Assembly (NCBI GenBank): GCA_043826355.1
Contig: JBDRQI010000003.1
Coordinates: 1-64,000 of the forward strand
DNA from: Candidatus Omnitrophota bacterium
GTDB lineage: Bacteria; Ratteibacteria; UBA8468; MWAK01
DNA length: 64,000 nucleotides
Reading direction: 5' to 3'
In this document: positions 31,049 to 38,875 of the stretch, one piece after another
Position numbering within the stretch: position 1 is the first letter of the stretch
Layout of the letters: each line of letters begins with the position of its first letter
Notes under the pieces: model-generated
The model's input: only the letters and a program-made list of their open reading frames with translations
Databases searched by the model: none
What the model was told of the DNA's origin: nothing
Position numbers and translations under genes: made by a program

Positions 31049-32001
31049 GTGATGAGGCAACATCTTCTAACAACAATTCGCGTGGCGGTAAGCAGCCTGC
31101 TTATCTTTTTAATGGTTGCGCCGGCTGCAAAAATCATATCACCTGTTTTCCCGCTGGTTGATATCAGCGGTTTTTCGGAAATTATACGTAATACCGACAA
31201 GGGATTTCTTTTGCTCGCCGCCGTCTTTTCTCTTATTTCGGCGGTGATGCTGGCCTGGCGCTGGAAGATTGTTATCTTGAACAACAGACTCTCTTTCCCC
31301 TTTTTGCTGCGCCTGACCTTTATCGGTATGTTTTTTAACAACTTTCTGCCCACCGGCGCCGGTGGGGATATCGTAAAGGGATATTATCTGTTGAAAGGCC
31401 GGGAGAAGAAATTGGACCTGGGTATCTCCATCTTTATAGATCGCCTGATTGGAACGCTATCCATAATGACGATGGGTTTTGTCGCGTCTCTTTTTTTCCC
31501 GAACCTGCCCCGAGTTACCGTATATCTGATAGTTATTATTTATATATCTATTCTCTTTTTTCTGCTCCTTTCCGCCTGGCCCGAACTGGGGAGGATTTTA
31601 GGGAAGGTTCTCTTTTTCCATACCTGGGGGAAACCGGCAGAATCAATCCGGCGCTTCTATTACGGATTACATAATTACCTGCAAAACCCCCGGCCATTAT
31701 TGCAGGCGCTGCTGGTCTCTTTCGGCTGCCAATTACTCATAATCGACGTAAATTATCTGGTTGCACTCGGCTTGAAGGCACCGGTGCCTTTGGGTTCCTT
31801 TTTTGTTTCCATTCCTTTAATCTGGTCGTTTGCCGCGGTGCCCTCGCTGGGTGGTCTCGGCGTCCGGGAAACCGGCTATCTTTTATTCTTTCAGGGCCGG
31901 ATGGGCCGGGAAAATGCTTTTGCCCTGGCTTTAATTATACTTGGTTTTTCACTTTTAAACAGCCTCATCGGCGGTTTAATCTATTTTTTGGGGGGTGGAC
32001 A

Positions 32002-32020
<19 letters not shown>
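31049..32020 (+). CDS. flippase-like membrane protein (lysylphosphatidylglycerol synthase TM / UPF0104)
   Basis: AWRW, FFNNFLPTGAGGD, DRLIG, PSLGGLGVRE. Confidence 0.9.
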
Positions 32021-36470
<4,450 letters not shown>

Positions 36471-36472
<2 letters not shown>

Positions 36473-36556
36473 GGCGACCTTTACGGAAAATGCCAGAATG
36501 CCCCGTCCTGTGGACGGGGTTCTTCACTGCAACTATACGGGTTTCCTGGCTTTTTA
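36471..36556 (+). repeat. right copy of direct repeat (duplicated aminopeptidase 3' end) split by a 43-nt insert
   Basis: AGGGCGACCTTTAC[43 nt]TGCAACTATACGGGTTTCCTGGCTTTTTA; 3 mismatches to left copy. Confidence 0.9.
36485..36527 (+). mobile_element. 43-nt IS200/IS605 right-end-like insert
   Basis: follows TTTAC; GAATG-CCCCGTCC-TGT-GGACGGGG hairpin; ends TTCAC; absent from the left repeat copy. Confidence 0.7.
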
Positions 36557-36571
36557 CATAAAGTAATTATT

Positions 36572-37627
36572 TCATTGCGCAGACGCGAAATTAGAGGATA
36601 AAACAAAATATTCTTTTAACTTTGACGCCTGAAGATTGTTGGAAATTCGAAGTTTCTGTTGCCGGCCGGAAATAAAGAAACGCCGCAAGTATTCAACCTC
36701 TTCGTAATCAACCCGGTAAGAAGTATCCATCAGACCACTGAGCGCCTGGCGTAAAATCTCGCGTTGCAGGGAAATGGGAAGAGATAAAAATTCCCGGCGG
36801 GGGATTTTATATCCCTCCGCTGCGTTTGTAGGGGCTCGATTCATCGAGCCCGATGCGGGTCGCATGAATGCGACCCCTACATTATTAAAAAGACAGCGGG
36901 ATTTTAAAAAATCAGCGGCCTGGCCGGAAATGTATTGGTAATCGGCGTTCAATATCTCGGCCATCCGAAAAAGGGCTCCCTTGATGTTGGGATTATACTC
37001 CGCAAGCAACGGCAATAGTTCCAGCCGGATACGGTTACGCTGAAATTTCTGGTCCAGGTTGGTCGCATCGCTGACAAACCGGTAATCTTTTTCCGCCAGA
37101 AATCCGGATATCTCAACCCGGCTTACAGAAAGCAGCGGCCGGATGAGATTGATTTTGGAACCGCTTGAAACAGGACGATAGGGTGTTATTCCGGAAAGAC
37201 CCTGCAATCCTGTTCCGCGAATAAGGTGTAAAATAATTGTCTCGGCCTGGTCATCTAACTGGTGACCGGTCGCAATGGAATGACAGGAAAAATGGTCGGC
37301 GGTTTTTTTTAAAAAATCATAGCGCGCCTTCCGGGAAGCATCCTCAGCCGCGCCCGGTTTCAAGGAACCTTTTCCGGCCAGAAACGGAACACGGTATTTG
37401 GCAGAGAGTTCCTTGCAGAAAACCGAATCATTTTCGGAAAACGGCCGGAGTCCATGGTCAAAATGCCCGGCAAAGAGACCGAATTTCAGGCGGGTTTGCC
37501 ATACCCGCAAAAGATGGAAAAGACAGACTGAGTCCGGGCCCCCGGAAAACGCCAGGAGCACCCGATCCCCTTTTTTGACCAGGGAATGCTCGATAATATA
37601 CGCTAAAACCTTATTTTGTATTTTCAT
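36572..37627 (-). CDS. tilS: tRNA(Ile)-lysidine synthetase
   Basis: SGGPDS, DHGLR, HQLDDQAET, IRPLL, RNRIR; in-frame REP doublet 36827-36881. Confidence 0.95.
   Translation of the reverse strand: MKIQNKVLAYIIEHSLVKKGDRVLLAFSGGPDSVCLFHLLRVWQTRLKFGLFAGHFDHGLRPFSENDSVFCKELSAKYRVPFLAGKGSLKPGAAEDASRKARYDFLKKTADHFSCHSIATGHQLDDQAETIILHLIRGTGLQGLSGITPYRPVSSGSKINLIRPLLSVSRVEISGFLAEKDYRFVSDATNLDQKFQRNRIRLELLPLLAEYNPNIKGALFRMAEILNADYQYISGQAADFLKSRCLFNNVGVAFMRPASGSMNRAPTNAAEGYKIPRREFLSLPISLQREILRQALSGLMDTSYRVDYEEVEYLRRFFISGRQQKLRISNNLQASKLKEYFVLSSNFASAQ
36827..36881. repeat. GTAG REP inverted doublet inside tilS
   Basis: TGTAGGGGCTCGATTCATCGAGCCCG-ATG-CGGGTCGCATGAATGCGACCCCTACA. Confidence 0.9.
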
Positions 37628-38433
37628 ATCTGGCAGGACGGGCAGAAATAGGTGGAACGGCTTCCGTCTTTTTGGACTCTGACCAGATTTCCGCAACATC
37701 GGCACGGCTGTCCTTTCCGCCGATAAACAAAAAGGCTGTTTTGGAATTTTCCGTAGCTGCCGTCCGGTTTCAGGTAATCCTGGATTGATGTCCCGCCTGC
37801 CTTGAGCGCTTCCTTAAGCGTTGATTTTATCGCCCGATAGAGTTTTTTTGTTTCGGCCGGCTGTAAAGCGGAGACCCTCCGGTCCGGATGAATGCCGGCC
37901 CGGAAAAGCGCCTCGGTCGCATAAATATTGCCCAGACCGGCTATTCTCTGCTGGTCAAGCAGAAACGTCTTGATACGACTGTTTTTCCCGAAGATGATCT
38001 GTTTCCAACATTCAAAGGTAAAATCGGGCGTCAAAGGTTCCGGACCTAAATTTAATTTTATTTCCGGGTCTTCACGGCGCAGGGTAAACCCGCCGAAACG
38101 CCGCAGGTCATGGTAATAAAGCCGGGACCCGTCCTGGAACAAAAAAAGGACGTGATGGCGAATCTTGGGCTCCGATCCGGAAGAGTAGAGGAGTTGTCCG
38201 GAAAGTTTAAGGTGTACCTGAAGGTACAAGGACGGCTTGAGGTCAAAGATGAGGTATTTACCTCTGCGTCGGATATTACCAATTTCCCTGCCGATAATCT
38301 TTCGTTGAAAAAAAACCGGGGAAGTCTCTTTAATCAGTTTGGGAACCAGGATTTTTACTGCCTGAATTTTTTTACCGACTAAATCTTTAACCAATTGTCG
38401 GCGAATAGTCTCAACTTCCGGTAATTCCGGCAT
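37624..38433 (-). CDS. mutM: formamidopyrimidine-DNA glycosylase
   Basis: MPELPEVE, RRGKY, GLGNIY, C-terminal zinc finger. Confidence 0.97.
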   Translation of the reverse strand: MPELPEVETIRRQLVKDLVGKKIQAVKILVPKLIKETSPVFFQRKIIGREIGNIRRRGKYLIFDLKPSLYLQVHLKLSGQLLYSSGSEPKIRHHVLFLFQDGSRLYYHDLRRFGGFTLRREDPEIKLNLGPEPLTPDFTFECWKQIIFGKNSRIKTFLLDQQRIAGLGNIYATEALFRAGIHPDRRVSALQPAETKKLYRAIKSTLKEALKAGGTSIQDYLKPDGSYGKFQNSLFVYRRKGQPCRCCGNLVRVQKDGSRSTYFCPSCQI

Positions 38434-38437
38434 AATA

Positions 38438-38875
38438 TTACATCTCTTCCGTTTCTTTTTGGGGATAAGAAAGTTGATACCGCGAATCAAGATAATCCTG
38501 CAGAATTATCTGGGCGGAAAGGCGGTCAATTATATTCTTTCTTTTTTGACGGGAAAGGTCCGCGGAAAGGAGATAACGTTCCGCCAATTTACTGCTCAAC
38601 CTTTCGTCCCACCTGGTTACCGCGCACCCGGTGATTTCCCGCAACTTCTCCATAAATCCGAGTATTGTCTTGGCCTGGGAACCCTCCTGATTATCCAGGG
38701 TTTTAGGCATGCCCACCACCAGCAGTTGCACCCGGTATTCCCGGATTATTTCCGGTATTTGTTTTTCCCATTGATTTTTGGGAATGACGGCCAGGCCCCG
38801 GGCCAGGGAACCATTTTCGTCGGAAATGGCCAGCCCGATGGACCGGTGACCGTAATCAATTCCCAGGATTCGCAT
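38438..38875 (-). CDS. ruvX: YqgF/RuvX nuclease
   Basis: ILGIDYG, IGLAISD, WDERLSS, AQIILQDYLD. Confidence 0.95.
   Translation of the reverse strand: MRILGIDYGHRSIGLAISDENGSLARGLAVIPKNQWEKQIPEIIREYRVQLLVVGMPKTLDNQEGSQAKTILGFMEKLREITGCAVTRWDERLSSKLAERYLLSADLSRQKRKNIIDRLSAQIILQDYLDSRYQLSYPQKETEEM

Follow-up and report, generated by a model that had tools for sequence, protein, structure and literature searches.

At the locus described here, which lies in a 64,000-nucleotide (nt) stretch of contig JBDRQI010000003.1 from the Candidatus Omnitrophota assembly GCA_043826355.1 (this whole stretch is referred to as the window), a lacZ-type beta-galactosidase gene stands between two copies of the 3' end of an aminopeptidase gene, and the second of these copies is split by a 43-nt insert (the 43-mer). 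With a probability of roughly 85%, we assign this insert to the palindrome-associated transposable elements (PATEs) of the IS200/IS605 family of insertion sequences (IS), more precisely to a non-autonomous form that has lost its core and consists of its termini only. The upstream open reading frame (ORF) 32002–33387 encodes an M18 aminopeptidase (Pfam Peptidase_M18, E = 2e-89), lacZ starts 13 nt past the end of this ORF, the displaced copy of the aminopeptidase end (copy B, as opposed to copy A within the gene itself) sits directly past the lacZ stop codon, and a tilS-like PP-loop gene follows on the minus strand (36572–37705), i.e. convergent with lacZ. The individual features, with the basis on which each was assigned, are:

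36480–36484, plus strand: TTTAC target motif (transposon-adjacent motif, TAM; putative left cleavage site), outside the element; uninterrupted site in copy A and in 4/4 same-genus genomes.
36485–36527, plus strand: probable one-hairpin (terminal-only) PATE, 43 nt; repeat copies elsewhere in the genome.
36497–36500, plus strand: putative guide tetranucleotide AATG, directly 5' of the hairpin foot; IS608 pairing code.
36501–36519, plus strand: subterminal hairpin with 8-bp stem CCCCGTCC/GGACGGGG and loop TGT; fold and compensatory changes.
36520–36527, plus strand: right tail TTCT + TCAC (putative right cleavage site; transposon-encoded motif, TEM); an identical tail ends the longer copy at C3:74675–74812.
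36471–36566, plus strand: relic copy B, corresponding to the terminal 53 nt of the M18 aminopeptidase gene, in two halves (36471–36484 and 36528–36566); repeat comparison.
33335–33387, plus strand: copy A, the functional aminopeptidase 3' end with uninterrupted TTTAC/TGCACC (33344–33348/33349); part of ORF 32002–33387.
33401–36472, plus strand: beta-galactosidase of glycoside hydrolase family 2, lacZ-type, 1023 amino acids (aa); context, outside the element, between the two repeat copies.

The insert occupies positions 36485–36527 of the plus strand directly 3' of TTTAC and has the layout GGAAAATGCCAG-AATG-CCCCGTCC-TGT-GGACGGGG-TTCT-TCAC, with GGAAAATGCCAG as a 12-nt leader. Its description in an earlier note made from the window's letters alone, i.e. 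an insertion after TTTAC with no clear target duplication and a 2-nt ambiguity of the boundary, agrees base for base with what we find, the ambiguity arising because flank and insert both end in AC. The repeat that it interrupts is defined by a 14-mer, AGGGCGACCTTTAC, present exactly at 33335–33348 and again at 36471–36484, and by a 35-nt repeat (33343–33377 versus 36522–36556) of 89% identity. That the pre-insertion allele is kept upstream, as the note had said, is borne out by the uninterrupted TTTAC/TGCACC of copy A (33344–33349), and the differences which it listed between the flank of the insert and the intact site, at positions 5, 9 and 11, can be read directly from the right flank TGCAACTATAC as compared with TGCACCTACAA. 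Its placement of the insertion in the aminopeptidase gene needs to be qualified, because what is interrupted is a relic of its last 53 nt in a displaced position, whereas the working gene is uninterrupted. Likewise, the insert is 'right-end-like' in its hairpin and 3' tail but also holds the 5' part of a left end. The 43-mer matches once in the window as against no match in 100 shuffles and, as single-stranded DNA, folds with -11.3 kcal/mol (z = -3.0). It has no terminal inverted repeats, a single subterminal hairpin with an 8-bp stem and, at 43 nt, is too short for a transposase gene.

In the genome that contains the window (G000; 1.87 Mb in 38 contigs, denoted C1, C3 and so forth; 85.7% complete), a pattern search found the 43-mer at five places with at most two mismatches, so that the genome search proposed earlier showed it to be multicopy; a reversed control pattern gave no match. 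One copy, at G000:C35:40600–40642, is identical over 43/43 positions, and copies with one or two mismatches lie on C15, C36 and C1. A looser census by blastn-short and plain regular expressions yielded 14 copies that bear a left end, namely ten one-hairpin copies, two complete two-hairpin forms (~140–170 nt) and two forms truncated after the core. TTTAC stands 5' of 12 and TTAC 5' of 13 of these 14 copies (the exceptions to TTTAC being ATTAC and TTTGC), which bears out the expectation that other copies would follow TTAC; with a background frequency of TTTAC of 0.0015 per position genome-wide, the binomial probability is 1.5e-32. In the two-hairpin layout, TTTAC is followed by leader-AATG-hairpin-ATGAATGG, a structured core and then GAAG-hairpin-TTCT-TCAC, and the left and right hairpins are near-identical 19-nt direct repeats. 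The longer and the partial forms are located as follows:

G000:C3:74675–74812 and C20:7850–8020: complete two-hairpin forms, with 5' leader and 3' tail as in the 43-mer.
C36:14796 and C17:144: forms truncated after the core.
C1:89932–89959: solo right end.
C1:45226: element fragment.

Some further observations concern this family as a whole. The two-hairpin core folds strongly (146 nt, -38.5 kcal/mol, z = -5.2) but matches nothing in Rfam; both a module for transposase binding and a remnant of a guide-RNA scaffold are conceivable. Beside the right end, a GCAGGCTAAAGCCTGC hairpin and CTACCCGYTCAGAAG are kept in elements of three phyla (C3:74675–74812, i.e. L011, as well as L020, L032, L034 and L036). 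The left flanks of two longer copies (C3:74813–74860 and C17:90–143) are alike over ~45 nt, which could mean a joint duplication of flank and left end or an element that is longer on its left side in these copies. At C23:5706–5740, the family hairpin is enclosed by the pairing of GTGAAGAA with the right tail TTCTTCAC, so that this variant is palindromic throughout.

Both the hairpins and the short sequences at their feet show covariation that matches the DNA guide code of IS608 of Helicobacter pylori. As set out in the cited descriptions of this element, the left cut is made 3' of TTAC, at a point 19 nt away from the hairpin foot on its 5' side, the right site TCAA is situated 10 nt past the foot on the 3' side, and the guides AAAG and GAAT stand directly 5' of each foot (PMC3201880, PMC5934647), with guide base 1 pairing with target position -3, base 2 with -4, base 3 with -2 and base 4 with -1 (PMC5934647). 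By this pairing, AATG corresponds to TTAC with four canonical pairs, and the right-end guide GAAG to TCAC with one A–A pair, as at the left end of IS608. We compared 73 distinct hairpin contexts, drawn from G000 and two other assemblies, from eight metagenome contigs and from another order (29 loci). They fall into three subfamilies (AATG-TTAC, AATA-TTAT and CAAG-TGAC), with right ends that combine GAAG or GATG with TCAC. Among the 30 AATG hairpins, TTAC is found 14–20 nt upstream in 21, TTAT in two and TGAC in one; AATA hairpins (n = 17) have TTAT upstream in 16 cases and TTAC in none, and all three CAAG hairpins have TGAC. TCAC occurs 6–10 nt 3' of the foot for seven of nine GAAG guides and four of five GATG guides. 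Guide base 1 (A, G or C) thus stands opposite T, C or G at target position -3, and guide base 4 (G or A) opposite C or T at -1, i.e. guide and site change at just those positions that the IS608 structures predict. For base 4 and the last target base, Fisher's exact test gives p = 4e-9, a value that counts copies and overstates the case because the independent events behind it are few, amounting to three subfamilies and the contrast of left with right ends.

The hairpin itself is equally constrained: over the 73 hairpins (48 distinct rows), 96.9% of stem cells are paired, as compared with 43–59% in slid controls, and compensatory changes at three stem positions account for 24 double-change cells versus 6.1 +/- 1.9 after shuffling, with none of 500 shuffles reaching 24. 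The wider family can serve as a natural read-out of a DNA guide code, in which three target motifs co-vary with their guides. In the 43-mer, the geometry corresponds to a left cut 16 nt 5' and a right cut 8 nt 3' of the foot; guide pairing, which holds for the family, is perfect at the left and has one mismatch at the right (AATG versus TCAC).

Sites without the element are found both within the window and in related genomes. In all four same-genus genomes, the aminopeptidase gene reads AAGGGCGACCTTTAC followed directly by TGCACCTA without interruption, and the full IS that relatives might have carried at this site is therefore absent from all four. In G002 and G003, the aminopeptidase gene is followed by tilS after ~60–90 nt, with no lacZ in this orthologous spacer. 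Since the orthologous sites are uninterrupted, lacZ, copy B and the 43-mer are specific to the lineage of G000, and TTTAC was part of the target. The C35:40600 copy is precisely missing from the orthologous spacer in G003 and G004, whereas the sites of four more copies, C15:3108, C36:105763, C1:130774 and C3:74812, are not covered by any one congener contig. A derived GGGTTTCC is common to copies A and B, the congeners having GGCCTTCC or GGGCCTTCC in its place, which makes a local duplication with later decay the best account of copy B. The likely order of events would be that lacZ was acquired in a step which duplicated the last ~53 nt of the aminopeptidase gene, and that the element then inserted at the TTTAC of the dead copy B. 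This insertion would have been neutral because its target was a dead, displaced gene copy, the TTTAC of the live copy still being uninterrupted, and the element is probably inert by now.

The assignment to the PATEs rests on the combination of these features, i.e. multicopy status, a target motif, absence of duplication, empty sites, covariation within the hairpin and covariation of guide and cleavage site, all of them observed. The idea of a minimal one-hairpin element of IS200/IS605 type, one of two possibilities raised from the window alone, has in this way gained support from TTAC at 13 of 14 copies, two-hairpin kin with the same ends, the guide code and the empty sites. If so, a Y1 transposase of the HUH type (TnpA) would move the element as single-stranded DNA by binding the subterminal hairpin, with the four bases 5' of its foot acting as a DNA guide that pairs with the cleavage site. 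AATG would read TTAC and, in the two-hairpin parent, GAAG would read the terminal TCAC; cuts would be made 3' of TTTAC and 3' of TTCAC, and the excised strand would be pasted 3' of another TTTAC, again without duplication. Both the mobilising TnpA and its identity are what we infer here. What the 43-mer would have kept is a 16-nt left leader including the guide, one hairpin and an 8-nt right tail, as would be expected after a deletion that runs, in a ~140-nt PATE, from one of its two near-identical hairpins to the other. The locus would thus represent a clean natural example of 'peel-and-paste' transposition, in which the filled site can be compared with empty ones, one paralogous and four orthologous, and would extend terminal-only PATEs from haloarchaea to an uncultivated bacterial phylum. 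It would also carry a warning for annotation, in that such 43-nt hairpins are scars of mobile elements rather than terminators or repetitive extragenic palindromes (REPs).

A number of findings weigh against this assignment, above all that no transposase gene flanked by ends of the 43-mer family turned up in any genome or contig examined, by searches that used near-exact end patterns on incomplete assemblies, so that the cognate tnpA/tnpB loci which the earlier note had hoped for were found neither in G000 nor elsewhere. G000 has two genes for Y1 proteins (PF01797), both of the REP-associated tyrosine transposase (RAYT)-like type and just under the cut-off of the NCBIfam model REP_Tyr_transpos (67 and 76 versus 80 bits), and no family hairpin lies within either locus (L006 or L007). 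Among other element-bearing genomes, none of seven Y1 matches in G065 and G066 has a family hairpin within ~1.5 kb, and one of 29 in five further genomes is near one; this single case among 36 Y1 matches in seven genomes occurs in L113, where a subfamily-3 left end adjoins the gene for a 220-aa protein homologous to the Y1 protein encoded on C6. At ten loci from public collections, the ~260 nt past each left end hold no transposase gene, ORFs being listed for L025 only. This absence does not amount to proof that a gene is lacking because G000 is 85.7% complete. Incomplete assemblies routinely lose multicopy insertion sequences. A further difficulty is that the only guide of the 43-mer, AATG, mispairs with TCAC (A opposite C at -3), so that cleavage at the right end is not assured. 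Moreover, congeners read CTTCA or CTTA rather than TTTAC at the C35 site and, with TTTAC at a fixed distance from the hairpin, its status as target rather than part of the element rests on one unambiguous empty site. The strand bias, by its direction, speaks for the assignment, since targeting of the lagging-strand template, as the source outlines it, predicts that the top strand lies on the G-rich strand (10.1101/279083), and in this draft genome this applies locally to 11 of 15 copies; but this bias is not significant (one-sided sign test ~0.06), and the window copy is situated in a region of near-zero skew.

The two Y1 genes differ in their surroundings from the 43-mer family and from each other. 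That on C1 (143 aa, 67 bits, G000:C1:46368–46799; L007 1447–1878) has GTAG-headed palindromes on both sides, which belong to the classical REP family of this genome (GTAGGGG-N(2-3)-G, 126 matches), a family separate from that of the 43-mer. That on C6 (228 aa, 76 bits, G000:C6:62482–63168; L006 1186–1872, minus strand) is bracketed by inverted TTAGGGACAGCCCCC repeats, of which there are four pairs in the genome (C1, C6, C9 and C28). The C6-protein homologue in the unrelated genome of L113 has the same TTAGGGACAGCCCCC bracket, and such homologues occur in 194 of 301 genomes of the order; gene and bracket have the appearance of a small unit in their own right, mobile or domesticated. Within this order, the C6 protein has homologues in 34 of the 45 genomes that bear the element and in 160 of the other 256 (Fisher p = 0.13), which gives no clear link. 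G150, G237 and G147 contain tnpA genes of the classical IS200 type (E about 1e-40), which were considered as candidates and discarded, as their ends are unrelated. The TnpB profiles PF07282 and PF01385 have no match in G000 at its 85.7% completeness, and the 35 nt 5' of the terminal TCAC (39 nt before the right cut) leave no room for an RNA scaffold, so that the suggested role of the flank as a TnpB guide finds no support; Rfam gave sub-threshold chance matches only.

Beyond G000, the distribution of the family is patchy. Collections were scanned with one near-exact end pattern each, and the assemblies in them are incomplete. The end pattern has no match in 40 relatives or in 64 other genomes of the phylum, and is present as a two-hairpin copy in a Deltaproteobacteria metagenome-assembled genome, as a one-hairpin copy in a Pseudomonadota metagenome-assembled genome and in eight metagenome contigs. 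With up to two mismatches, the pattern occurs in 45 of 301 sampled genomes of the order to which the Pseudomonadota genome belongs. Within the class of G065, the pattern was found in one of nine genomes, G065 itself. Viral contigs gave no match to the pattern, nor did plasmids in a blastn search with the two-hairpin element. Together with the five near-identical copies in G000, this patchy spread points to a recent horizontal arrival, and it means that gene-less PATEs are spread over distant phyla without a visible transposase partner.

Among known systems, the closest likeness is to the terminal-only 52-bp PATEs of Haloquadratum walsbyi (HqIRS46 and ISHwa23), which arose by deletion between two near-terminal palindromes (Dyall-Smith et al. 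2011, PMC3119063). By their published description, these too lack inverted terminal repeats, have a single palindrome close to a terminus, cause no target duplication and use a 5' target of 4–5 nt, and it is on this basis that we set the 43-mer beside them as a new member, bacterial and 43 nt in length, of a kind already described. Differences are their size, their archaeal host and an unrelated sequence, as well as the fact that ISHwa23 has a 1.5-kb parent (PMC3119063), whereas no gene-bearing parent of IS605 type was found here. With IS608, as far as the cited accounts go, the 43-mer shares insertion 3' of TTAC without duplication, subterminal hairpins with a 4-nt guide 5' of the foot, the pairing positions and an asymmetric geometry with a long left leader and a short right tail. 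In contrast to IS608, which carries tnpA and tnpB and has two unlike hairpins with the guides AAAG/GAAT for TTAC/TCAA, it has no gene, a single hairpin, a guide AATG that is canonical with all four bases of TTAC, and TCAC as its right site.

The ISGst elements and PATEs of Geobacillus stearothermophilus are described as having many gene-less or tnpA-less copies, TAM and TEM that co-vary with their guides, and TTCAC as the TEM of ISGst2, such copies being mobilised in trans by one TnpA (Meers et al., PMC10055086). According to the same account, the PATEs among them often carry an omega RNA scaffold and coexist with TnpB or IscB and tnpA, whereas for the 43-mer neither TnpB nor a classical tnpA was found and a scaffold would have no room. 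Finally, REPs and the bacterial interspersed mosaic elements (BIMEs) built from them, along with their TnpA-REP (RAYT) enzymes, resemble the 43-mer in being single palindromes, imperfect and ~35–40 nt long, that have a conserved tetranucleotide at their 5' foot and as single strands are processed by a Y1 HUH enzyme able to cut either side of one hairpin; in the portrayal given by this source, they differ in having a GTAG foot, in usually lying around a RAYT gene and in being cut between C and T (PMC3333891). The 43-mer has AATG where a REP would have GTAG (or CGTC) at the 5' foot of its palindrome, is unlinked to either Y1 gene and has TTTAC as a fixed target.

Within the assignment to the PATEs, the odds seem about even between arrival as a 43-nt unit and loss of the core on the spot. 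A scenario that is nested in this assignment, and differs from it only in the mode of arrival, is that a two-hairpin (~140-nt) PATE or a full IS was inserted here and later lost its core between the 19-nt hairpin repeats. Such repeat-mediated loss is documented for PATEs and IS605-type elements (PMC3119063), it would be easy between near-identical direct repeats, and it would suit both the mispairing of the single guide AATG with TCAC and the recurrence of one-hairpin forms elsewhere, the right tail in each lineage being that of the respective subfamily (TAATTCAC in L072, L079, L082 and L083; other tails in L021, L023, L026 and L028). Yet the window and C35 copies are identical over 43/43 positions and share with C36:105763 a T in the stem (CCCCGTCC) that is absent from the four left-end hairpins of longer forms in G000 (CCCCGGCC twice, CCCCGCCC and CCCGGCTT once each), and three separate deletions plus the same substitution would be less parsimonious than copying of a one-hairpin unit. 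We regard loss of the core in place as a real possibility, with a chance somewhat short of even. That the 43-nt one-hairpin unit is itself competent for transposition, and is moved in trans by a RAYT-like Y1 enzyme (RAYT-like because no classical TnpA was found in the genome), is a proposal which we make tentatively and which is more likely to be wrong than right by a clear measure. For Haloquadratum, several strain-specific insertions are reported in short form only, which suggests that short forms can move (PMC3119063). In a mobile 43-mer, AATG would set the left cut at TTAC and, with one tolerated mismatch, the right cut at TCAC; if true, the 43-mer would be the smallest natural substrate of a Y1 HUH transposase and a living intermediate between IS200/IS605 elements and REPs.

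Other explanations would place the insert outside the PATEs altogether. It might be a REP-type repeat served by one of the two domesticated RAYT-like Y1 proteins and not an IS derivative, for which its REP-like size and single hairpin, the RAYT-like nature of all Y1 proteins found in G000, the C6-protein homologue adjoining a subfamily-3 left end in L113 and the ability of TnpA-REP to cut either side of one hairpin (described in PMC3333891) could all be quoted. We consider this unlikely, because the foot is AATG and not the GTAG of E. coli-type REPs (PMC3333891, as depicted there), because other repeats flank both Y1 genes and neither is flanked by the 43-mer family, i.e. there is no REPtron, and because carriage of the element goes along with no clear enrichment of C6-protein homologues. 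In addition, systems of RAYTs and REP doublets forming hairpins (REPINs) are characterized in the literature cited as vertically inherited (10.1101/2022.05.22.493013), whereas occurrence of the family in other phyla, but in none of the 64 other genomes of this phylum, fits transfer.

A speculative suggestion of the earlier note, in which the 43-mer would be the right end of a larger unit (33349–36527) that brought lacZ to the TTTAC of the aminopeptidase gene, draws on the absence of lacZ from this locus in G002 and G003, on its foreignness to the phylum and on the flexible spacing between motif and guide and possible capture of outside sequence in IS200/IS605 elements (noted in PMC10055086). 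Such a unit would start with 39 nt of the aminopeptidase 3' end and carry 14 nt more of it before the 43-mer, so that a donor would already have needed the duplicated structure. There is no left-end sequence at 33349, the derived motif common to copies A and B and absent from four congeners fits local duplication, the right junction of lacZ lies 14 nt left of the 43-mer and not at it, and lacZ has no close relative in the element-rich order. We have thus abandoned this suggestion as very improbable. Even less credit is due to the view that a hairpin or transcription terminator evolved in place between lacZ and tilS, which converge here; this would account for a GC-rich hairpin in this position but hardly for near-identical copies at unrelated loci and precise absence at orthologous sites; the hairpin is not among the 12 terminator-like sites listed for 31500–38500 because its tail is not T-rich enough.

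In 64 other genomes of the phylum, lacZ has no close homologue, the best match having 31% identity over part of the protein, and no link of lacZ to the donor group of the element emerged, with a homologue in one of 301 genomes of the element-rich order at 37% identity. In contigs from soil and sediment runs (single and of low depth), 3' ends of lacZ that are 88–95% alike leave the window sequence at 36464–36470, which places the right junction of lacZ at about 36470/36471, i.e. 14 nt left of the 43-mer. The TAG stop codon of lacZ spans the junction with the aminopeptidase relic (36464–36472), and the similar lacZ ends in soil and sediment contigs continue for about two codons more. Inside the 3' end of lacZ, AAGGCGACTTTTAC (window 36374–36387) matches the 14-mer AGGGCGACCTTTAC at 12 of 14 positions; this likeness may be due to chance or to microhomology used in joining lacZ.

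In the sequencing data, one run only holds the whole stretch, and its contigs break at the 43-mer; runs in which it has a small share matched parts of lacZ and tilS, never the whole locus. In this run (X1), the probable source of the DNA, the summed contig depth over the 43-mer (window 36478–36531) is ~570–670 as compared with ~45 on the flanks. Such an excess would be expected of about a dozen copies in the community sampled, and it explains the assembly breaks at the element. An apparent joint from 36556 to 36100 turned out to be one contig that reads copy A and then lacZ, and not a rearrangement. Further upstream, in the coding region of the aminopeptidase (window 33273–33315), there is a perfect 14-nt inverted repeat (CGAATGCATTGACA/TGTCAATGCATTCG), the right arm of which is conserved with at most one change in four congeners.

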